Below are positions 3,530 through 42,237 of a stretch of DNA of 64,000 nucleotides, one piece after another. The notes beneath the pieces were generated by a model. That model saw nothing but the letters and a program-made list of their open reading frames with translations. It was not told the origin of the DNA and did no database searches. The position numbers were made by a program, and so were the translations under genes. Source of the stretch: Clostridium sp. 26_22. Lineage in GTDB: Bacteria > Bacillota > Clostridia > TANB77 > CAG-508. Position 1 is the stretch's first letter. Every line of letters starts with the position of its first letter. The stretch is taken from NCBI GenBank assembly GCA_001916005.1, contig MNRP01000037.1:1631-65630 (forward strand). Reading direction: 5' to 3'.

Positions 3530-3648
3530 TTATTGTCAAAAGAAGTAGAAATAATTTGGTAAAAATACCAGCAATGGTCAAAAATAAAAGTAAATGAATG
3601 TTGAAATCTTTGTTTTTGCATGTGCAGTTATAAGTGCGAAAAGTCAAT

Positions 3649-3686
3649 AAACCGCAAGAAATAATTTGAGTTATTTCTTGCGGTTT
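3649..3686 (-). terminator. hairpin terminator downstream of the Rieske/FAD gene
   Basis: AAACCGCAAGAAATAA / TTATTTCTTGCGGTTT form a 16-bp stem with a 6-nt loop. The flank is T-rich on the minus strand. Confidence 0.6.
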
Positions 3687-3716
3687 ATGTCTTATTATTG
3701 AGTCAATAGAATTATA

Positions 3717-5399
3717 TTAACTCAAATCTATCACATCTAAATCTCTAATCGCAGGATTATACAATTGATGTCCTTTGTAATCAAATCTAGACCCATGGCA
3801 AGGGCAATCCCAAGTCTTATCAAGATTATTCCAACTAAGGAGACAACCTAAATGTGTACAAATAGGATTAACAGCAAAAATTTTTCCATCATTATCTTTA
3901 TAAATTCCAATTGTTTGCCCATTATATTTAAGTACATGTCCTGAGTCATTTTTTATTTCTTCAAAATTACCAGCTTTTTTACTTCCTGACATGACAGAAT
4001 TATCTTCAATTACATCCAAATCAGCATCAGGTACCTTAAATTTATTAATCACAAAAGAATTAGTAGTTTCTTTTATCATATTACCAAGTTCCACATTATT
4101 CTTAATAGGGTGTAATCTGGTAGCTTTAAATACATTCTCATATTCATTTTCGCGACCTAAAATTTTATCAACAATAATATTACCAGCAACATTCGAAGAA
4201 GTCATTCCCCATTTATTAAAGCCAGTACCAATATACATATTAGGCATAAAGTGGGAAAATTCACCAATATAAGGAATCTTATCAAGCGTAATACAATCTT
4301 CCGTATTCCATTTATACAAAACTTTACAATCTGGATAATATTTTCTTACTTCATATTCTAAAATACTATAAGCATTTGATAAATCTATTTTGCTTCCAGT
4401 CTTATGATCTGCACCACCTACTAACAAAAGTCTTTTTCCACAAGAACCACTAAAATTTGCAAATCTATATGAAAAAGTAGGTTGCTTGGAATTTATATAC
4501 ATTCCGTCAAAAGTTTTATCTCCAATATCTACAGCAATTACATAAGATGTTGATTGATACATCTTCAAAAAATAATATCCTAAACGGTCAATAAAAGGAT
4601 AATGAGAGGCTAGTATTACATATTTTGACCTAACGACATAATCTTTACATGATGTTATAAACTCATCATTTTCCTTTTTAATATTTTGAACAAGCGTATC
4701 TGTATAAATTTCACCTGTACCTTTTGCAAGATTTAAACTAGCACCACCTGGACTATTTTCAACGATGCCATCTCCAACAGAAACTGAACCAACCGAACCA
4801 GCATTAACTAAGCCATCAATCGCACTAGAACCATTAGAAGTAATACATTTTGCCAATCCATACGCATATTTTATAGGATTAAACTCAGCTTGATTTGGAA
4901 ACCTTAAAGCACCTAACACATTAAAGGGAAGAGGAGGAGATGTAACAAATTCGCTTTTAAACCCAAGAGAATTTACAGCTTTATTTTCTAATTTAATTTT
5001 TTCTAATTCATCCAAATTATTAGTATAAACATAACTATCTTGTCTTACAAAATCACAGTCAATATTTTCATCATTTATAATCTGATAAATATTTTCTATG
5101 GCATCTTGATTTGCGTACAAATATTTCTTAGCCATAGATTCACCTAAAGAGTCAATTAAATATTTATATATAAGATTATGCTGACTTGTTATTTTTGCAG
5201 TAGTATGCCCAGTTGTTTTACTGGCAATATCTTTCTCTTTCTCCAAAAGAACAACATTATATCCTTGTTTTGTTAAATAATAACCGCAAGTAAGTCCAAA
5301 AATACCAGCACCTACTATACAAACATCAGTAGATATGTCCTTTTCTAATTTATTAAACTTATTTTTATTTTCTATAGAATCAAGCCAAAAAGAATTCAT
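3717..5399 (-). CDS. FAD-dependent oxidoreductase with C-terminal Rieske [2Fe-2S] domain
   Basis: The N-terminus has the dinucleotide fold VCIVGAGIFGLTCGYYL. The C-terminus has the Rieske motifs CTHLGC...CPCHGS. Confidence 0.8.
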   Translation of the reverse strand: MNSFWLDSIENKNKFNKLEKDISTDVCIVGAGIFGLTCGYYLTKQGYNVVLLEKEKDIASKTTGHTTAKITSQHNLIYKYLIDSLGESMAKKYLYANQDAIENIYQIINDENIDCDFVRQDSYVYTNNLDELEKIKLENKAVNSLGFKSEFVTSPPLPFNVLGALRFPNQAEFNPIKYAYGLAKCITSNGSSAIDGLVNAGSVGSVSVGDGIVENSPGGASLNLAKGTGEIYTDTLVQNIKKENDEFITSCKDYVVRSKYVILASHYPFIDRLGYYFLKMYQSTSYVIAVDIGDKTFDGMYINSKQPTFSYRFANFSGSCGKRLLLVGGADHKTGSKIDLSNAYSILEYEVRKYYPDCKVLYKWNTEDCITLDKIPYIGEFSHFMPNMYIGTGFNKWGMTSSNVAGNIIVDKILGRENEYENVFKATRLHPIKNNVELGNMIKETTNSFVINKFKVPDADLDVIEDNSVMSGSKKAGNFEEIKNDSGHVLKYNGQTIGIYKDNDGKIFAVNPICTHLGCLLSWNNLDKTWDCPCHGSRFDYKGHQLYNPAIRDLDVIDLS

Positions 5400-23422: not shown

Positions 23423-23497
23423 TGGGCTGTAGCCAAGCGGTAAGGCACCAGACTTTGACTCTGGCATGCGCAAGTTCGAATCTTGCCAGCCCAGCCA
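23423..23497 (+). tRNA. tRNA-Gln (anticodon UUG); integration target of the tandem elements
   Basis: The acceptor stem is TGGGCTG/CAGCCCA and the anticodon loop is CTTTGAC. CCA is encoded. The 3' end overlaps the 13-bp att core. Confidence 0.9.
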
Positions 23498-23499
23498 AC
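23487..23499 (+). repeat. att core copy 1 (attL of IME-1)
   Basis: CAGCCCAGCCAAC, identical to the copies at 33447-33459 and 42225-42237. Confidence 0.85.
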
Positions 23500-27839: not shown

Positions 27840-27868
27840 TTGAACTTTACATAAAAGTATGATATAAT
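27840..27868 (+). promoter_or_regulatory. rightward promoter P1 of IME-1
   Basis: TTGAAC, a 17-nt spacer, then the extended -10 TGaTATAAT. It lies back-to-back with the leftward promoter, with 21 bp between the two -35 boxes. Confidence 0.6.
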
Positions 27869-27874
27869 TGTTAC

Positions 27875-28170
27875 AACTTTATAGTAAAAAGAATGGCTTA
27901 AAATCTTAATTAATCCATTCCGCAAGCGTAATGCTTGATGTTTAACTTAAAACATTCAGGCATTGCAGTTGCTTGGATTTTTTATACATACGAGATTTTA
28001 AACATTATGTGTTTTTCCGTTTGTATGAGGTTGAATTTTTACTTGAAGAATTTATTACAAAGGAGAGCACACATATGGAAGAGATGTTTGTAGGCGGACG
28101 GAAGTCCAGGTGGTTAGCCTTTCATAGGATGCCATTCAAAGACAGAGAGGGAGGGAAAATCCCTCCTTTA
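27875..28170 (+). ncRNA. candidate structured RNA-1 of the IME-1 switch region (P1 transcript, 5' domain)
   Basis: There is no ORF conserved with IME-2. The hairpin CAGGC[ATTGCAGTT]GCTTG spans 27957-27975. A loop GGAGAGCACACATA lies at 28062-28075. The GGAGGG/CCCTCC hairpin spans 28147-28169. The conserved 11-mer GGAAGTCCAGG is present. Confidence 0.5.
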
Positions 28171-28172
28171 TA

Positions 28173-28201
28173 TTGTAATTTATAAGTAATTAAGGTATAA
28201 T
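28173..28201 (+). promoter_or_regulatory. internal promoter-like site P2 of IME-1
   Basis: TTGTAA, a 17-nt spacer, then TATAAT. The same boxes and spacing are present in IME-2 although the spacer sequence differs. Confidence 0.5.
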
Positions 28202-28207
28202 AAAAAT

Positions 28208-28300
28208 AACTATTTAAACTAACTGCAATAGTTTGAATAGGGGCTATATAGCTAACAAAACACGGGAAGTCTATGTGTGTTCTCCTCCGTGTTTTGTTTT
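28208..28300 (+). ncRNA. candidate about 90-nt two-hairpin sRNA (RNA-2) or 3' domain of the P1 transcript
   Basis: SL1 (28210-28240) has an 11-bp stem with the loop AACTGCAAT. SL2 is AACAAAACACGG/CCGTGTTTTGTT followed by a U tract, and its loop contains TATGTGTGTTCTCC. Both loops are complementary to sites in RNA-1. Confidence 0.5.
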
Positions 28301-28387
28301 TTGCGTACAGTGCATTATTTTGTGAAGTTACTTAAAATTTATGAATAATATGGATAAAATTTAGTCTAAAAATAAAGAAATATACTT

Positions 28388-28433
28388 AAAATCTGCATAC
28401 TATGCAATTTTTAATGCGTAGCATGCAGATTTT
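28388..28433 (+). terminator. long hairpin plus T tract upstream of the Spo0A_C-like gene (attenuator/terminator)
   Basis: AAAATCTGCATACTATGC / GCGTAGCATGCAGATTTT give 17 pairs with one mismatch. The counterpart in IME-2 is at 38067-38112. Confidence 0.55.
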
Positions 28434-28511
28434 TATATTTTGACCAATTTACATAATCATAGTATAGTTTTAATAAATAATATAGTTTTTAACAGAAAGA
28501 GGGGAAAGAGA

Positions 28512-28865
28512 TTGCAAGATTTTGATAATAGACAATTAAATATTATAATTCGCAATAATCTTCGTTTATTAGGTATAAAATCTTGCAACAAAAGTACAAA
28601 GATGCTTGCGAAAACTATATTTTATATTAAAAGTAATAATATAATACTTGAAGATTATAAAGCTAATGAGATTTATTGTAGTATTGCAAAATTATATAAC
28701 AATACTACACCTAAGAATATAAAAGATAATATTGATTATGCTTTATCACATAGAGATGTATTAAAATCAAAGCAAAATTTTAAAAGAGTATTTAATTTTG
28801 AATATTCAGAAGATGTATTTACAAATAAGAATTTTATTGAAGAGTTTTCAAATATAATTAATTGA
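28512..28865 (+). CDS. Spo0A C-terminal (DNA-binding) domain-only protein, TTG start
   Basis: LRLLGIKSCNKSTKMLAKTI...IYCSIAKLYNTTPKNIKDNIDYALSH...FTNKNFIEEF is collinear with the Spo0A effector domain. The TTG at 28512 follows AGAGGGGAAAGAG. The ORF-track start at 28440 lies in the terminator T tract. Confidence 0.6.
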   Translation: MQDFDNRQLNIIIRNNLRLLGIKSCNKSTKMLAKTIFYIKSNNIILEDYKANEIYCSIAKLYNNTTPKNIKDNIDYALSHRDVLKSKQNFKRVFNFEYSEDVFTNKNFIEEFSNIIN

Positions 28866-29216
28866 TTGTAAATTCAACTTTATTAACTGAAATAGAAAAG
28901 CATATATAGAGGAATAAAAGTACCTAATTTTATTGTCAAAATTCTATAGAAATATGATACTCATCTTAGTAGATAAAACAAAGATAAAGAGAAATACAAC
29001 TTATTAATAAAAGAAATTTATAATATTATAGAAATTTAAATATAGCCAATATTAGAAAAAATATTTATTTTTACTTTTTTTTACCTTTTTATTCAAAAAG
29101 ACTAAATATATGATATTAATATTGTATAAAATTAGTACTTAATATTGAAACATAAATATCTTAATATGAAAGGAGGATAGAAAAATATAAATTTTTTATA
29201 AAGGGGGAATTATAGA

Positions 29217-30428
29217 ATGAAAGTATGGAAAATTTTTAGAAATATTATTAGTAGTATAATTGCTTTTATATTAATAAATAGTATGATTGTATTTTCTTAT
29301 GCAAGTGAACAAAATAAAGTAGATAAAAAGTTAGAACCTAATATAGAAGCAAAACAAGATGAAGAAATAAGAATAGAGAATAATAAAACTAGGATATTAG
29401 AACAGGAACTAGATTATTTAGTAAATATGAGAGTATATATTAAAAATGCATATACAGGAAAATATTTAGATGTAGCTGGTGGTAATATAGAAAATGGAAC
29501 TAATGTGCAACAATATGAATTTAATGGAACTAATGCACAAAAATGGGGATTATATTCTTATGGAGATGGAAATTATACAATAGTATCTGAGCTTAATAGT
29601 GATGGTACACATTATAATAGGGTTTTAGATGTAAGTAACGGATTAAATGGAGAAAATATAAATGTTCACTTATGGGAAAATAATGGTAGTGATGCACAGA
29701 AATTTTCTATTTGTAAAACAAATTATAGTACTTATGTAATATTTTCAAAAGTCTCAAATTATGAAAAATGTGTACAATTAGATGGATTCCCTTGTAATAA
29801 TAGTGCAAATGTAGATCAATATTCATGGGTAGCAACTGCTAATCAATGTTGGATTCTTGAACCTGTATATGAAACTCCTAGCTTTGGAGTTAGATATGCT
29901 AAAGATACTTATAATTTAGGAGTTCATGCGTATCCAGATATGAGAGACTGGGGGGCAGATTGTACTAATTTTGTATCTCAATGCTTATTAGCTTCTGGCA
30001 AACATTATCAAGATAATTGGAAAGTTTATCGCAAAAACGATGCTTATAGTAAACCTACTAGTGTACAACAATTGGATGAGTCATGGGAACTTTGCCAACC
30101 TAAAACCAGTCCATGGACTAGTGCCCAAGAGTTTTATAACTACTGGAAAAATCGTTCTTCATATCGTTATATAAAAGGATCAGATATTGTTGCAAATAGT
30201 TCTAATGCAGTTTTGCAAACAAACTTAAATGAGGGAGATGTAATTCAATATGCAGAGTTTAATATATTTGGTCAACCGTCACAAGTTAACCACACAATGT
30301 ATGTAACAGGAAGAAATAGTAATAACTATTATTTAACGTATCATTCGGAATCAAGACTAGATAAAAGCTTAGTTGAGATATGTAATGATTTACCAAATAA
30401 GTATTTTATATTTTACAGAATAATGTAA
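29217..30428 (+). CDS. secreted ricin-B-lectin plus amidase-like (Cys) domain protein
   Basis: It has a signal peptide, Q-x-W-type trefoil repeats (NAQKWGL, DAQKFSI, NQCWIL), and a C-terminal GADCTNFVSQCLLASG as in putative amidase (Amidase_6-like) domains. Confidence 0.6.
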   Translation: MKVWKIFRNIISSIIAFILINSMIVFSYASEQNKVDKKLEPNIEAKQDEEIRIENNKTRILEQELDYLVNMRVYIKNAYTGKYLDVAGGNIENGTNVQQYEFNGTNAQKWGLYSYGDGNYTIVSELNSDGTHYNRVLDVSNGLNGENINVHLWENNGSDAQKFSICKTNYSTYVIFSKVSNYEKCVQLDGFPCNNSANVDQYSWVATANQCWILEPVYETPSFGVRYAKDTYNLGVHAYPDMRDWGADCTNFVSQCLLASGKHYQDNWKVYRKNDAYSKPTSVQQLDESWELCQPKTSPWTSAQEFYNYWKNRSSYRYIKGSDIVANSSNAVLQTNLNEGDVIQYAEFNIFGQPSQVNHTMYVTGRNSNNYYLTYHSESRLDKSLVEICNDLPNKYFIFYRIM

Positions 30429-30470
30429 AATATGATAAAATATTATAATAAAGAAAAGGGGGATGAAATT

Positions 30471-30989
30471 ATGAGAAAAAAAATATTAATTGGAATAATA
30501 ATAATGATAGCTATTCTTATTCCTGTAGTAGTATTTGCACTTAAAGAGAATAGTTTGTATTTACCTCCAGCTGGACCAGAGAAAATAACAAAAAATTATA
30601 GTGAAATTAGTTCTAATAGTATTACTACATCTGAAACATCTGAATTGACAGAGAATGAAAGTAAAATGATACAACAAATGCAACAAGAATCAGAAGAATA
30701 TCAGAAAAAAAATGAAGAGGCAAGAGAGATATTAAGAAAGTATAATCCTAATACATTTGATGAATTATATGAAACGAACATAGAAAATTATGAGAAAAAG
30801 GGATTTCACGATTCTGAACTTACAAATGAAGAAAAACAATTATATAAAATGATTATTGATACATATGAAAATGATAATTTGGATGAAAATGAAAGAAATA
30901 TTTTAAAACAACAAATAGAAGAAAATTATGATTATATAAGGAGTATTCCGGGTCTACAAGAAAGAGCAGATAAGATTTTAAATAAATAA
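30471..30989 (+). CDS. membrane-anchored acidic protein (possible partner of the amidase-like protein)
   Basis: GGGGGA RBS, then ATG 30471. It has a single N-terminal TM helix and an E/N/K-rich ectodomain. Confidence 0.5.
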   Translation: MRKKILIGIIIMIAILIPVVVFALKENSLYLPPAGPEKITKNYSEISSNSITTSETSELTENESKMIQQMQQESEEYQKKNEEAREILRKYNPNTFDELYETNIENYEKKGFHDSELTNEEKQLYKMIIDTYENDNLDENERNILKQQIEENYDYIRSIPGLQERADKILNK

Positions 30990-31070
30990 TATAATGGCTA
31001 ATTATTAAGGAGGAATACTCTAATAGGAGTTTTCTCCTTAATTTGAATTTGAAAATGTAAAGGGGAAAAA

Positions 31071-31787
31071 ATGATTAATATTTTAGTGGTAGAAGATGAT
31101 ATTATTCAATTAAAACAAATCATTAATTATATATCACAAAAAAATGAAGATATTAAATTATATGGACTAACATATTCAGGAGAAGAAGCATTAAAATTAT
31201 TAATGACAGGAAAAATTGATATTATTATTTTAGATTTAAAATTAGATGGTATGAGTGGTGTTGACGTTATAAAGTATATTGAAAGTAAGAAAATAGAAAA
31301 ATATAAGAAGTCAATTATAATTGTTTCAGGCGAATATAATATGATTAAAGACATATATACTAGTATATATGTCTATGAAATTTTTTTAAAACCATTTAAT
31401 CTATACTCTTTAAATAAATCTATTGAAGATATAATATATGAGAAGAAATATGCTAATGAAATAAAAGAAAAAATACGTAGGGAATTAGACTTACTTAATT
31501 TTAATTTTACTCATGAAGGAAGTAAATATTTATTGGAATGCATTTATCAAGTATATACTTTAGAGTATATAGATGATATGAATTTATCAAAAATTATTTA
31601 TCCTATTTTAGCTAAGAAATATAAAAAAACAGTTAACACAATATATGGAAACATAAAACAAGCGATAAATTCAATGTTTGATAATTGTCCCAAGAAGGTT
31701 TTAAAAAACTATTTTAATTTTAATTGTTTAATAAAACCTAGACCTAAAGAAGTAATTTATACTATTTTAAATAAAATTAATAATTAA
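31071..31787 (+). CDS. Spo0A-like response regulator (receiver + Spo0A_C DNA-binding domain) carried by IME-1
   Basis: The REC residues are VVEDD, IIILDLKLDGMSG, IIVSG and FLKPF. The C-terminus IYPILAKKYKKTVNTIYGNIKQAI...KPRPKEVIYTILNKI is collinear with Spo0A LYPxIAKKYxTTxSRVERAIRHAI...KPTNSEFIAMIADKL. Confidence 0.7.
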   Translation: MINILVVEDDIIQLKQIINYISQKNEDIKLYGLTYSGEEALKLLMTGKIDIIILDLKLDGMSGVDVIKYIESKKIEKYKKSIIIVSGEYNMIKDIYTSIYVYEIFLKPFNLYSLNKSIEDIIYEKKYANEIKEKIRRELDLLNFNFTHEGSKYLLECIYQVYTLEYIDDMNLSKIIYPILAKKYKKTVNTIYGNIKQAINSMFDNCPKKVLKNYFNFNCLIKPRPKEVIYTILNKINN

Positions 31788-33446: not shown

Positions 33447-33459
33447 CAGCCCAGCCAAC
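33447..33459 (+). repeat. att core copy 2 (junction IME-1/IME-2)
   Basis: CAGCCCAGCCAAC. Confidence 0.85.
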
Positions 33460-36744: not shown

Positions 36745-37473
36745 TTATTCATTTTCAAAAGCATATGTATCTGTTATATCAAGATATAAAATATTATGCT
36801 TATTTAGAGTTTCTTTTTCAACATCTGAAACTTTTAGTTTTTCTAATAATTCGTCTGTAAAGTCTACATCATCTTTAGAGAGAATACATTTTCTAATACT
36901 AGGAATATATTCACCATTGGTGCAATGAAAAGTTCCTAACATTAGCTTATTTGTTCCTCTAGCTATATTTACTATGATATGTGAAAGCTCAAAACGTAAA
37001 TTGTTTTCCTTATAATTTTCAAAGACAAATACTGAAATGTGTTGGTCAGCTTGTAAATATCCCGATAGGTAAATATAATCTTCTTTATAGTCCATAAAAT
37101 CCACTTTGCATAAATCTGGCTTTTGAATGATTTTTAATCGAAATTTACCTTTTCCATATTTTTTTGATTTTGGATAATATGCAATGTAATATAAATAAAG
37201 TATATCTGCATTAAAAGGGTTTCTTTCAGTTTCAATATTATTTATCTTTTTAGCACTATTAAATAGTTCATATTCATAAATACCTAATTCATTGCAAATT
37301 AAATATATTTGTTCTGCATTAGGTATAATTTCGCCAGTTTCATATCTAGCAATAGTTGCAGGTGTTTTATTTAGTAACATTGCTAGATTTTCTTGACTTA
37401 AACCTTTAGCTTTTCTAAACTTCCTTATATTGTTTCCAAACTCTTTTTTATTAAAGTTAGACATATTATTCAC
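36745..37473 (-). CDS. XRE-family regulator with C-terminal domain (IME-2)
   Basis: The HTH is FGNNIRKFRKAKGLSQENLAMLLNKTPATIARYETGEIIPNAEQIYLICNEL. It is clearly more diverged from its IME-1 counterpart than int or mob are. Confidence 0.8.
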   Translation of the reverse strand: MNNMSNFNKKEFGNNIRKFRKAKGLSQENLAMLLNKTPATIARYETGEIIPNAEQIYLICNELGIYEYELFNSAKKINNIETERNPFNADILYLYYIAYYPKSKKYGKGKFRLKIIQKPDLCKVDFMDYKEDYIYLSGYLQADQHISVFVFENYKENNLRFELSHIIVNIARGTNKLMLGTFHCTNGEYIPSIRKCILSKDDVDFTDELLEKLKVSDVEKETLNKHNILYLDITDTYAFENE

Positions 37474-37489
37474 CTACTTTACATAACAA

Positions 37490-37518
37490 AATTATAACAT
37501 ATTATTACTATATAATCA
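37490..37518 (-). promoter_or_regulatory. leftward promoter of IME-2
   Basis: On the minus strand: TTGATT, a 17-nt spacer, then TATAAT. It sits at the same position relative to the XRE start as in IME-1. Confidence 0.55.
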
Positions 37519-37545
37519 ATATAACTGTTGTAGACACCAGTAAAA

Positions 37546-37574
37546 TTGCCATTTTTAACAAAATATAGTATAAT
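37546..37574 (+). promoter_or_regulatory. rightward promoter P1 of IME-2
   Basis: TTGCCA, a 17-nt spacer, then TATAAT. Confidence 0.55.
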
Positions 37575-37580
37575 AAAAAT

Positions 37581-37845
37581 ACTATATAGTAGAAAAGATG
37601 GCTTTGAGCTATTTATCAAGTTGTAATACTTGATTCGATTATGATAATTGTTTCAAGTATTGCAACTACTTGGACTTTAGGATACAACATTTGTTATCCT
37701 CTTTTATCATAATCGTTTTTAACTTATAGAATATCTATTGGGGAAGGAGAACAACAAATGGGAAGTCAAGAATTTTGTATTGACGGTGGAAGTCCAGGAG
37801 CCTCGAACCGTCTATCTGAAAGAGGAGGGTAAGATTTTCCCTCCT
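37581..37845 (+). ncRNA. candidate structured RNA-1 of the IME-2 switch region
   Basis: The hairpin CAAGT[ATTGCAACT]ACTTG spans 37654-37672. GGAGAACAACAAATGG lies at 37746-37761. The GACGGT/ACCGTC helix encloses GGAAGTCCAGG. The GGAGGG/CCCTCC hairpin spans 37824-37844. Confidence 0.5.
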
Positions 37846-37858
37846 AACATCTTATATA

Positions 37859-37887
37859 TTGCAAATACTATAAATATTTAGTATAAT
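37859..37887 (+). promoter_or_regulatory. internal promoter-like site P2 of IME-2
   Basis: TTGCAA, a 17-nt spacer, then TATAAT. Confidence 0.5.
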
Positions 37888-37893
37888 TAAGTT

Positions 37894-37978
37894 AGTTAAT
37901 CTAAATTAGTTGCAATAGTTTTGGATTAATTATATAACGCAGGGGGCTTTTCCATTTGTTGTTCTCCTGTGTTTTTTA
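37894..37978 (+). ncRNA. candidate about 85-nt two-hairpin sRNA (RNA-2) or 3' domain of the P1 transcript (IME-2)
   Basis: SL1 carries the loop AGTTGCAAT (37908-37916). SL2 is AACGCAGG/CCTGTGTT followed by a T6 run, and its loop carries CCATTTGTTGTTCTCC (37952-37967). Confidence 0.5.
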
Positions 37979-38066
37979 ATTTCGTTAAACGTAATATTTG
38001 GTGATTTTACTTTACAAATAGTTATAACTTATAGCTACTTATAAAAAAAGTATCTAAAAAAGGTAC

Positions 38067-38112
38067 AAAACTTGCATAATATGCAAATTTCATTGCTTAT
38101 TATGTAAGTTTT
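38067..38112 (+). terminator. long hairpin plus T tract upstream of the Spo0A_C-like gene (IME-2)
   Basis: AAAACTTGCATAATATGCAA / TTGCTTATTATGTAAGTTTT span 20 positions with one mismatch and one GU. ATTTTTTT follows. Confidence 0.6.
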
Positions 38113-38190
38113 ATTTTTTTGAATTTTTTACATAAAGTTGCTATATTTTTATTATAAAATAATATTTCATAATGGTTGGGGGACGTTTAA

Positions 38191-38601
38191 TTGTTAAATG
38201 ATTATTTAAAAACAAATAATTTAATAAATTCTAAAAACTTAATTCTAATTTATAATATATTAAGAGATTTAGGTTTAAATACAACACTTAAAGGAACAAA
38301 GCTTTTAAATAAATCAATTCAAATTGTTATAAATAGTGAGGTTGAATTTATAGTTTTAGAAAATGTTTATAATAAACTCGCATTAAAATGTGTAGGCTTT
38401 AATTCAGCTCAAATTAGAAATTCGATTAAATATGCAATAGATACTCGAAATGAAGAAAAATCTAAAGTAAATTTTGAAAATATATTTGGATATCAATATG
38501 ATAGTTATTATTTTACTAATAAAACGCTTATAGAAGAAATTACAAGAGTTGTAAAATATAAAAATAGCATAATTATGCACTATTCAAAAATTTGTAGGTA
38601 A
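38191..38601 (+). CDS. Spo0A C-terminal domain-only protein, TTG start (IME-2)
   Basis: ILRDLGLNTTLKGTKLLNKSIQIV...VYNKLALKCVGFNSAQIRNSIKYAIDTRN...FTNKTLIEEITRVV is collinear with the Spo0A effector domain. Confidence 0.6.
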   Translation: MLNDYLKTNNLINSKNLILIYNILRDLGLNTTLKGTKLLNKSIQIVINSEVEFIVLENVYNKLALKCVGFNSAQIRNSIKYAIDTRNEEKSKVNFENIFGYQYDSYYFTNKTLIEEITRVVKYKNSIIMHYSKICR

Positions 38602-41361: not shown

Positions 41362-41528
41362 ATCTAGCATTGGTTAAAGTAGTATTTTATTTCTATTCAT
41401 TTGTAGTAAGTTATATAATTTTATTTTATAAATTCAACTGGCAAAAATAAATATTATTAAAACAATAGATTTTAATAAACAAGAATGGTATAATAATATT
41501 GTATAAATATTTTATGGAGGTAATTAAT

Positions 41529-41771
41529 ATGTCTATAGAAAAGCAAAAATTATTTAATGAAATCGAAACATTACCAGATGAACTTACAAATCAAGTTATT
41601 GATTTTATTGAGTATTTAAAATTATCTTATGTAGATGCAGAAGCTCCAGAAAATGTAACAATAAAAAGCAAAAAAGATTTAAAAGAAAAGTTACAAAAAG
41701 GATTAGATGATGTAAGAGAGAACAAAGTATTTTCACTAGATGAAGCCTTTGCAAAAATAGATAATATGTAA
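41529..41771 (+). CDS. putative type II antitoxin
   Basis: GGAGG RBS, then ATG 41529. It is a small acidic protein (IETLPDELTNQVIDFIEYL...GLDDVRENKVFSLDEAF) directly upstream of a ParE/RelE-like gene. Confidence 0.55.
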   Translation: MSIEKQKLFNEIETLPDELTNQVIDFIEYLKLSYVDAEAPENVTIKSKKDLKEKLQKGLDDVRENKVFSLDEAFAKIDNM

Positions 41772-41790
41772 GAAAGCTAGGAGTGAATTT

Positions 41791-42114
41791 ATGAAAAGAT
41801 ATATAGTAGAAATTTCTAAAACTGCAGAGCAAGATTTAGAAGATATTATTTTATATTTACGACATAGCTTAGCAGGAGAAATTATTGCTGACAAGTATAA
41901 AATATTATTTAAACAAAAATTAAAAGAGTTAGAGAATATAGCAGGAAGTATGCCTATTTTAAGCGAGGAATTGACAGGTCATAAAGACATTAGAAAAATT
42001 AATGTTAGAAATTATATTGTATTCTATATAATCGATAAAATTAATTCCAAAGCTTTAGTTCTTAGAATAGGTCACGCTTTTATGGACTGGGAAAAATATT
42101 TAAGAGATGAATAA
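41791..42114 (+). CDS. ParE/RelE-family type II toxin
   Basis: YIVEISKTAEQDLEDIILYL...IRKINVRNYIVFYIID...LVLRIGHAFMD is the typical ParE/RelE pattern. Confidence 0.7.
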   Translation: MKRYIVEISKTAEQDLEDIILYLRHSLAGEIIADKYKILFKQKLKELENIAGSMPILSEELTGHKDIRKINVRNYIVFYIIDKINSKALVLRIGHAFMDWEKYLRDE

Positions 42115-42224: not shown

Positions 42225-42237
42225 CAGCCCAGCCAAC
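42225..42237 (+). repeat. att core copy 3 (attR of IME-2)
   Basis: CAGCCCAGCCAAC. Confidence 0.85.

Follow-up and report, generated by a model that had tools for sequence, protein, structure and literature searches.

Antisense-type control by RNAs that recognize each other through kissing loops is a mechanism class that is already known. CopA/CopT of plasmid R1, with its tap leader peptide, and RNA I/RNA II of ColE1 combine a kissing-loop start, the blocking of a short leader open reading frame (ORF), and loop-based specificity classes. For the c4 type of phage RNA, Citron and Schuster reportedly found in 1990 that matched changes in the RNA and its target distinguish related elements and make them heteroimmune. 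The c4 RNA of phage P1 also provides a precedent for an immunity-like lock (PMC8198154). The locus described here lies in a stretch of 64,000 nucleotides from Clostridium sp. 26_22 (assembly GCA_001916005.1, contig MNRP01000037.1, positions 1,631 to 65,630), referred to below as the window, in which two tandem integrative mobilisable elements (IMEs), IME-1 and IME-2, each carry one copy of an RNA module. The module combines pairings that covary, conserved promoters, and an ORF with a coding signal. Its best explanation, and a fairly probable one, is that a tandem-encoded small RNA (sRNA) blocks translation of a micro-ORF in an element-specific manner.

How would such a module work? In the IME-2 copy, promoter P1 (TTGCCA-17-TATAAT, 37546-37574; this and all parts of the module lie on the plus strand) would drive RNA-1, the target RNA (37581-37850, its 5' end placed from P1; fold z-score -5.5), which carries a conserved Shine-Dalgarno (SD) sequence and AUG, followed by a 13- to 24-codon ORF for a putative Gly/Pro-rich GG(S/C)PG micropeptide. 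Directly downstream on the same strand, promoter P2 (TTGCAA-17-TATAAT, 37859-37887) would produce RNA-2, an sRNA of roughly 85 to 115 nucleotides in the family and about 85 in IME-2 (37893-37977), ending at the intrinsic terminator T2. RNA-2 is predicted to fold into two hairpins (z-score -4.4 in IME-2 and -4.0 in IME-1), namely SL1 (37893-37932) and T2 (37936-37973), the latter followed by a U-run. The interaction is postulated to proceed in two steps. (i) The 7- to 9-nucleotide loop of SL1 would kiss the loop of hairpin SL-B in RNA-1. (ii) The loop and 3' arm of T2 would then form a duplex of 13 to 20 base pairs over the SD, the AUG, and the first codons, and ribosome binding would be blocked. 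We infer that repression is translational and exerted in trans, possibly also in cis.

The complementary segments are easily located in both copies. In IME-2, hairpin SL-B (37652-37674) presents the recognition loop AUUGCAACU (ATTGCAACT at 37659-37667), closed by the stem CAAGT/ACTTG, and the loop of SL1, on a bulged stem of 16 pairs, is its complement AGUUGCAAU (37908-37916; AGTTGCAAT as DNA). The second pairing joins GGAGAACAACAAATGG (37746-37761) to a fully complementary segment at 37952-37967 and extends to 20 nucleotides at 95%, between the SD, AUG (37758-37760), and first codons on one side (37745-37764) and the anti-SD/anti-AUG segment of the sRNA on the other (37949-37968). An earlier interpretation made from the letters of this DNA (the sequence-only reading) had described P1, P2, both loops, the 16-pair duplex, and an 11-mer shared with IME-1, all of which lie where it placed them. 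It had also put the anti-SD in the terminator loop, which describes most of that segment, though the last two bases (37966-37967) already belong to the T2 3' arm. In the sRNA by itself, GUUCUCC is predicted to lie inside an extended stem, while UUUUCCAUUUGUU remains as a loop. The IME-1 copy (27840-28299) has P1 at 27840-27868, SL-B loop AUUGCAGUU at 27962-27970, the SD/AUG at 28061-28077 with the ORF starting at 28075, P2 at 28173-28201, and RNA-2 at 28207-28299, with its loop at 28221-28229 and its anti-SD at 28272-28286.

Do these pairings hold beyond the two copies? Because homologs were gathered by way of the flanking XRE-type repressor protein rather than the RNA, their sampling carries no bias towards RNA conservation. 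The sample comprises 70 loci (18 from a genome collection and 52 from metagenomes) with 46 unique upstream regions, all from assemblies of gut Clostridia. An alignment from the start of P1 to T2, termed A4, holds 42 of the 46 regions and underlies the figures that follow. Taken together, the local helices and the loop-loop contact are 96.7% paired, with 31 of 59 pairs changed on both sides. None of 500 shuffles reached the observed pairing and covariation of the whole structure, and sliding the 3' partners by one to three columns lowers pairing to 31-44%. The 9-nucleotide loop-loop contact alone is 98.9% paired (6 of 9 pairs changed on both sides), and the first ten pairs of the SD duplex are 96.1% paired (7 of 10). 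The covariation score of that duplex is 0.527, compared with 0.183 for shuffles, none of which (0/500) reached it, despite four rows that are misregistered by 2 nucleotides. The earlier proposal that compensatory change supports both long-range pairings is thus borne out in the 42 homologs, where the two strands do not vary independently but retain pairing through matched changes. One of its counts needs correcting: the five two-sided changes reported in the long duplex between IME-1 and IME-2 come to four plus one G·U on recounting, a number that depends on where a 1-nucleotide indel is placed.

Additional properties of the alignment speak to what kind of molecule is conserved. G·U pairs outnumber A·C combinations 188 to 29 across the helices, which points to RNA of the plus strand and away from both a DNA palindrome and an RNA of the minus strand. 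Next to duplex positions that covary, ATG and GGAG hardly vary at all, indicating that they are selected as translation signals. RNAalifold independently recovers both RNA-2 hairpins as the consensus, and a covariance model of RNA-2 finds exactly one copy per IME, scoring 71.1 and 56.0 bits. A further match of this model (36.7 bits, 3645-3751, in the region 3585-3751) has nothing to do with the module: an ordinary bidirectional terminator separates two convergent genes there. Two candidate helices were also discarded. Pairing of the SL-B 3' arm with the conserved motif GGAAGUCCAGG appears in the minimum-energy fold, but it is 85% paired, as are shuffles, and does not covary. A local GNRA-type hairpin inside GGAAGUCCAGG has a middle pair that does not covary (AC 12, AT 9, TT 7, and so on).

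What, then, does the micro-ORF encode? Read in frame 0, the products of the homologs are 13 to 55 amino acids long with unrelated tails. A conserved block has the column pattern GGN CGG WWG YCC WGG, in which codon position 1 varies and positions 2 and 3 are fixed. One base later the same block reads GGW WGY CCW GGN, that is, Gly-(Ser/Cys)-Pro-Gly, with its variation at synonymous sites. The motif GGN_CGG_W is present in 37 of the 42 aligned sequences, IME-1 among them (GGA CGG A in a candidate +1 frameshift site at 28096-28117, CGG at 28099-28101), and five, including those of IME-2 and locus L041, are without the extra C. Among the 37, the synonymous share of differences upstream of the site is 0.25 in frame 0 and 0.01 and 0.07 in the others, whereas downstream it is 0.02 in frame 0, 0.50 in the +1 frame, and 0.04 in the +2 frame. 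Purifying selection therefore appears to pass to the +1 frame at this point, and codons of that frame account for the GGAAGUCCAGG motif. In IME-1 the +1 reading after the site is GGA AGT CCA GGT GGT TAG, with a predicted product of 13 codons, MEEMFVGG|GSPGG. The predicted shifted products are uniform, at 13 to 21 amino acids (another is MKKSIFLDG|GCPGGNPYIL), and agree with what the five sequences lacking the C encode in a single frame, including IME-2 (MGSQEFCIDGGSPGA...) and L041 (MNKMFYDGGCPGGIPVMY). In IME-2 the ORF (37758-37832) has 24 codons and a stop and reads MGSQEFCIDGGSPGASNRLSERGG, with its GSPG core at 37788-37799 in a single frame. A divergent homolog, L048, has TCT rather than AGT for Ser and CGG one codon later (CCA CGG A), and its +1 codon is again Gly.

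Overall, the ORF is best read as a conserved micropeptide of 13 to 24 amino acids with the core GG(S/C)PG, for which most relatives would need a +1 shift at CGG. In most members, then, translation would additionally have to pass a shift at a nearly unused codon: CGG occurs once in the 13,482 codons of the window's ORFs (26.7% G+C), compared with 418 and 261 occurrences of the +1 codons GGA and GGT, and the codons of the +1 frame are the commonest in use. The predicted products are Gly/Pro-rich and have no hydrophobic stretch (e.g., MEEMFVGGGSPGG and MGSQEFCIDGGSPGASNRLSERGG). This revises part of the sequence-only reading, which saw no peptide similarity between the two ORFs; that is true only when both are read in frame 0. 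The 11-mer GGAAGTCCAGG (28100-28110 in IME-1 and 37788-37798 in IME-2) does stand in different frames as a frame-0 reading, but it encodes G-S-P-G in both elements if IME-1 shifts by +1, and conservation need not lie solely at the RNA/DNA level as had been concluded. Sites at which ribosomes shift by +1 on a hungry codon are known from Ty1 (CUU_AGG_C) and Ty3 (GCG_AGU_U), and the module site likewise places a very rare Arg codon in the 0-frame A site and a common Gly codon in the +1 frame. At the Ty1 site, tRNA-Arg is sparse while the +1 codon is read by an abundant tRNA-Gly (PMC5009743). The P-site tRNA at the module site would, as in Ty3, be unable to re-pair in the new frame. The module differs from both in being bacterial, in lying within an ORF of 13 to 21 codons under sRNA control, and in resting on comparative evidence.

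RNA-1 itself appears to be a two-state RNA. At its 5' end, the 5' arm of SL-0 (37596-37614; arm 37596-37601) pairs either locally with 37609-37614 (100% paired, 4 of 6 pairs covarying) or, as GAAUGGC, with GCCAUUC just before the T1 hairpin (37807-37813; 97.8% paired, 6 of 7 pairs covarying). The loop and 3' arm of the next hairpin, SL-A (37617-37632; stem 99.5% paired), mimic the sRNA loop within RNA-1 and can pair with the 5' arm and loop of SL-B (95.6% paired, covarying, reached by 0 of 500 shuffles). SL-B also forms its own stem (96.6% paired, 4 of 7 pairs covarying). Lastly, a 17-nucleotide repeat (82%) at 37688-37704 constitutes an upstream cis anti-SD that could pair imperfectly with the SD/AUG. 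The mean energy of this contact is -17.3 kcal/mol for cognate combinations and -12.3 kcal/mol for non-cognate ones, and 0 of 5,000 permutations reach the cognate mean, a result inflated by sequence relatedness. Thus the 5' arm, the SL-B loop, and the SD have two exclusive partners each, as seen in covariation counts for the first two and, for the cis partner of the SD, in the energy comparison only. In both window copies the minimum-energy fold consists of the closed pairings; imposing the open ones instead (SL-A, SL-B, the enclosing helix, and a free loop) raises the energy by 14.5 kcal/mol in IME-2 and by 11.4 kcal/mol in IME-1. RNA-1 is therefore pictured as locking itself, with the SL-A mimic on the SL-B loop, the upstream anti-SD on the SD, and the 5' end on the segment before T1, and as alternating between an open form that would be translatable and accessible to the sRNA and a closed form that would be inert. 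mRNAs of the hok type follow the same closed/open logic. By analogy, RNA-1 seems to have a hok-like or par-like design (for par, see PMC7472228).

This design is what favors the most serious rival explanation, an addiction cassette resembling a type I toxin-antitoxin system, which we regard as unlikely though far from negligible. In this view RNA-1 would act as a long-lived toxin mRNA that inhibits itself and RNA-2 as a short-lived antitoxin, such that loss of the IME would free translation of the toxin. The harm could come from the peptide or from ribosome stalling or peptidyl-tRNA drop-off at the hungry CGG, and diversification of the pairing sites would prevent neutralization by related elements. 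Such a design likewise resembles hok/sok. It also matches par of pAD1 in its kissing start, its second complementarity over the initiation site, and its sequestration of the SD and 5' end (PMC7472228). The 5'-3' pairing and the metastable 5' hairpins are backed by covariation, translation would be blocked in several layers, and the two genes form a self-standing cassette carried by a mobile element. Hungry codons close to a start can also show minigene-like toxicity (PMC2490762), which counts for the same explanation. Against it, the peptide is rich in Gly and Pro and, in contrast to Fst, Hok, and other type I toxins, contains no hydrophobic stretch, and the two genes are in tandem on one strand, neither overlapping nor convergent. 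Two loci disrupted by insertion sequences (L012 and L051) hold RNA-1 with no RNA-2. Additionally, the cassette occupies the junction of repressor and early promoter rather than an edge of the element, and the right end of IME-2 already carries a gene pair of the ParE toxin type.

A second rival concerns the number of transcripts. Both promoters are well conserved in hexamers and spacer length while the spacer letters vary: P1 has the -10 box TATAAT in 45 of 46 homologs, a spacer of 17 in 45 of 46, and an extended TG in 43 of 46, and P2 has TATAAT in 40 of 42, a -35 box TTGNNN in all 42, and a spacer of 17 in 41 of 42. The T1 hairpin that follows the ORF (37823-37845) is conserved and G+C-rich, at -8 to -17 kcal/mol across homologs, and T2 has a U-tract while T1 in IME-2, as in most members, has none. 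T1 was considered as the terminator of RNA-1 and set aside for this reason. RNA-1 may stop at T1 by another mechanism or may read through to T2 at 37977, in which case it would contain the RNA-2 sequence and could pair with it in cis. Could the module then be a purely cis-acting structure, a single transcript from P1 to T2 whose own 3' domain masks the SD, with no independent sRNA, comparable to the 3'-UTR/5'-UTR pairing of other mRNAs? Covariation by itself cannot distinguish cis from trans pairing, and the centroid fold of the 398-nucleotide long transcript of IME-2 does contain a 23-base-pair SD/anti-SD helix. For IME-1, however, the upstream anti-SD is what the long transcript retains in its minimum-energy fold and in its centroid fold, and in cis the loop-loop contact and the SD helix would cross as a pseudoknot. 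P2 is moreover as conserved as any element of the region, with a spacer sequence that is variable (column entropies of 0.05 for the -10 box, 0.46 for the -35 box, and 1.00 for the spacer), and SL1 begins 5 nucleotides after the P2 -10 box in 41 of 42 sequences. The conserved P2 argues for a separate sRNA, and a purely cis-acting structure is accordingly improbable in our estimate, though cis and trans action of the RNA-2 sequence are not exclusive.

The module lies between the divergent XRE repressor gene and a rightward gene that encodes a Spo0A_C-like protein and has its own promoter. This setting, together with the fact that the 3' end of the anti-SD (CUCC) belongs to the T2 3' arm, suggests a third rival, in which the RNAs control termination of the rightward operon. 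In P1 transcripts that run on past T1, SD/anti-SD pairing would remove two G-C pairs of T2 and constrain its loop, leading to read-through, and RNA-2 acting in trans would occupy the SD and restore termination. Attenuation in pT181 and pIP501 and the CI RNA of phage P4 offer similar schemes. Ahead of the next gene, however, stand T2, a U-tailed hairpin at 38067-38112, and a separate conserved promoter, P3, so the rightward operon needs no read-through and the module looks self-contained. Antitermination also leaves the strong conservation of SD, AUG, and peptide unexplained, and covariation of an antiterminator was neither sought nor found; we give this explanation very little weight. Least credible of all are DNA-level repeats acting as looped operators or other paired protein-binding sites, or as recombination sites, for although the region is intergenic, regulatory, adjacent to a helix-turn-helix repressor gene, and followed by further palindromes (TGCATAnTATGCA), the G·U excess given above makes sense only for a plus-strand RNA, the complementary segments fall precisely in the loops of hairpins that themselves covary, and one segment is an SD plus AUG while the other lies inside a terminator.

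The palindromes just mentioned occur at 38067-38112 and, in IME-1, at 28388-28433, where two adjacent copies make up a long hairpin with a U-run behind it, shortly before the conserved extended -10 promoter P3 (-35 box at 38119) of the Spo0A_C-like gene. A third small palindrome follows T2 at 37985-37997 and 28304-28316. These palindromes downstream of T2 could be operators, a third terminator, or both. On the other side of the module, an XRE promoter-like site (37491-37519, minus strand; TTGATT-17-TATAAT with TG, found by promoter scan, its extended -10 box kept in homologs) stands back to back with P1, and the 26 base pairs between their -35 boxes (37520-37545) are element-specific and palindrome-like. 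Among homologs the sequence at this position varies by XRE clade and is palindromic in several (e.g., CTTAGAG-C-CTCTAAG in L004). It is likely the XRE operator, overlapping P1.

If RNA-2 recognizes RNA-1 through these contacts, how specific is the recognition? Alignment A4 contains 11 loop versions, each with its exact complement, and the divergent L048 adds a twelfth, AUAGCGAGU/ACUCGCUAU, so that loops do fall into discrete co-varying classes. At least one mismatch is present in 82 of the 90 non-cognate loop combinations, and the other eight pair only through G·U and in one direction. For the SD duplex, the mean energy is -29.1 kcal/mol for cognate pairs and -17.1 kcal/mol for non-cognate pairs, with the cognate target the top partner of most sRNAs. 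About five loop positions and about eight duplex positions vary, and they change only in matched pairs; related elements therefore carry different versions of a lock and key. Two loci that are 95% identical outside the sites (L021 and L022) differ at 8 of 21 duplex columns, all compensated, and another pair, 92% identical (L038 and L066), differs at 4 of 12 loop positions. Among close relatives, loop and duplex change independently of each other and in concerted steps. A uniform hypervariability of the sites was considered and rejected: mean divergence among close pairs is 0.056 in loops, 0.022 in the duplex, and 0.038 outside, and the changes are episodic and concerted. The loop classes do not track XRE alleles, a possibility that the sequence-only reading had put up for checking; 74 of 140 pairs with XRE proteins at least 75% identical differ in the loop, and one loop class is found with XRE proteins only 43% identical. 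Within the 64-kilobase window, no second target for the anti-SD was found besides its own SD (up to 3 mismatches), and the loop 9-mers occur elsewhere only at chance frequency.

The two co-resident elements provide a natural case of potential cross-talk. The sequence-only reading counted, for the 9-mers, two G·U pairs in one direction and two mismatches in the other, counts that we also obtain, and it proposed that the two circuits may be insulated. This holds for the IME-1 sRNA, which meets two loop mismatches on the IME-2 target and pairs poorly with its SD (-19.9 kcal/mol). It does not hold for the IME-2 sRNA, which forms 7 Watson-Crick and 2 G·U pairs with the IME-1 loop, pairs with the IME-1 SD region more strongly than the cognate sRNA does (-27.1 versus -24.9 kcal/mol), and is predicted to bind that target as well as the cognate one.

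Several points weigh against element-specific translational repression by RNA-2. Insulation of the co-resident IMEs, as just described, would be in one direction only by these energy estimates. Transcription from P1 and P2, the RNA ends, action in trans, and translational repression are all things that we infer. P1 transcripts may read through to T2 and pair in cis. The sRNA is evidently not indispensable, since in L012 (1095-2475) and L051 (36-992) P2/RNA-2 and the following segment are replaced by transposase genes (a split DDE-like transposase in L012 and an rve-type transposase in L051) while RNA-1 and its ORF are intact. No downstream gene is obviously coupled to the micro-ORF. Finally, the shuffle controls ignore sequence relatedness; the slid-partner controls (31-44% versus 96.7%) allow for it.

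What would element-specific repression of this micro-ORF be for? The wider setting of the module is relevant here. Both IMEs are inserted at the 3' end of a tRNA-Gln gene, and a 13-base-pair att core, CAGCCCAGCCAAC, identical to that end, bounds them in three copies (23487-23499, 33447-33459, and 42225-42237). Each encodes a tyrosine integrase, a leftward operon headed by the XRE-type helix-turn-helix gene, the rightward Spo0A_C-like gene, and a MobV (Mob_Pre) relaxase. Between the two elements the integrase and relaxase are 86-87% identical, but the XRE proteins are 46% identical and the Spo0A_C-like proteins 34%, so the regulatory middle, where the module sits, is the diverged part. Divergence confined to the regulatory segment of otherwise 86-87% identical elements matches the pattern of an immunity region. 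It is this mosaic divergence, along with the position at the repressor junction, that favors a role as a lock, element-specific and post-transcriptional, that would restrain a small but potent product of the switch region under XRE control, a secondary immunity like that of P1 c4. We regard this role as a reasonable possibility, somewhat short of probable.

A bolder speculation, and a rather improbable one, is that the module is a mobile-element switch of a new type that integrates three inputs on one mini-gene. The orthogonal, tandem-encoded sRNA key would report element identity, the hok-like self-lock would provide timing, and the obligatory +1 shift, at a codon that the host hardly decodes, would read tRNA supply or translational state, which starvation or a helper conjugative element might change. 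The GG(S/C)PG micropeptide, or a stalled ribosome, would act as the trigger, either flipping the IME from XRE-controlled quiescence to excision and mobilisation or killing cells that lose the element.

The same two IMEs occur in tandem in reversed order in another sample (L080), which implies independent integrations. The exact XRE protein of IME-2 is found in 1,679 blocks of a public assembly collection, on contigs of up to 1.85 megabases, and IME-2 mostly occurs as a lone element at the same tRNA site in many genomes, while the exact IME-1 XRE protein is rare (6 contigs). Evidently the carrier is a gut organism of common occurrence, and its genome is small and low in G+C. Two small genes at the right end of IME-2 (41499-42114) match in position and length a pair in L071-L078 that encodes products of 80 and 107 amino acids, the latter matching the Pfam family ParE_toxin; the IME-2 counterpart is a type II toxin-antitoxin pair on the same element. 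Both IMEs encode proteins with a Spo0A C-terminal domain but no receiver domain (28440-31787 and 38191-38601), and IME-1 additionally encodes a complete response regulator that includes a Spo0A_C domain, as well as an amidase carrying ricin-type lectin repeats. Such cargo suggests that these IMEs may interfere with sporulation control or the cell wall of the host.

As a structured-RNA family absent from Rfam, the module enjoys comparative support that is unusually clean; it occurs in IMEs of abundant human-gut Clostridia. Regulation of IMEs is largely unknown, and an RNA lock at the repressor junction would add a new layer of control. The dozen or so natural loop classes and 19 duplex versions make a ready set of cognate and non-cognate pairs for studying the evolution of RNA-RNA specificity and cross-talk, and they double as a parts list for orthogonal riboregulators. 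If true, the candidate +1 shift at a near-unassigned codon in a gene of 13 to 21 codons would be of a programmed kind that is uncommon for a bacterium.

How does the module compare with systems already described? The module had no BLASTN match in phage or plasmid collections, scanning IMG/VR by way of the XRE protein gave none either, and a limited search of the literature on IMEs, sRNAs, kissing, and antisense RNAs found no description of it. In Rfam, only tRNAs were detected over the whole window at gathering scores, and the region 37450-38200 gave two chance-level matches at E values of up to 10; the C4 family (RF01695) was matched in neither search. Within that limited search, we found no module described as uniting same-strand tandem genes, an internal sRNA mimic, a dozen natural specificity classes, and a micropeptide that depends on frameshifting. 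CopA, RNA I, and the countertranscripts of pT181 and pIP501 are cis-antisense RNAs from the opposite strand that control a replication gene, whereas the module has no overlapping transcription and no rep gene downstream.

Another comparison is the par (Fst) locus of the Enterococcus plasmid pAD1, whose RNA I and RNA II likewise kiss and then use a second complementarity that sequesters the initiation site. The module shares with type I toxin-antitoxin systems in general an sRNA complementary to the initiation region of the target mRNA, but its peptide is not a hydrophobic membrane toxin. Unlike par, it has its two genes in tandem on a single strand, and it lacks both the shared bidirectional terminator and the direct repeats (DRa/DRb) on opposite strands. 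Some other type I loci are divergent and pair in a trans-type manner. With par and hok/sok the module also has in common its occurrence on mobile elements and a target mRNA that hides its own SD and 5' end (for par, PMC7472228), although, unlike theirs, its sRNA is lost in two natural variants.

Also comparable are the c4 RNA of phages P1 and P7 (immI) and the related CI RNA of P4. They differ in that c4 is cut from the operon transcript, whereas the module sRNA lies downstream of its target with its own conserved promoter. The module ORF, moreover, is followed by terminator-like hairpins and not by a coupled antirepressor gene, and its host is a Gram-positive anaerobe and its element an IME rather than a phage. 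The shared features are nonetheless several. In all of them, the repressor RNA is encoded on the same strand as its target and in the same small region. As in c4, the complementary segments are short, one of them overlies the ribosome-binding site of a small ORF, matched changes determine specificity, and the RNA works beside a protein repressor, C1 in phage P1 and the XRE protein in the module.

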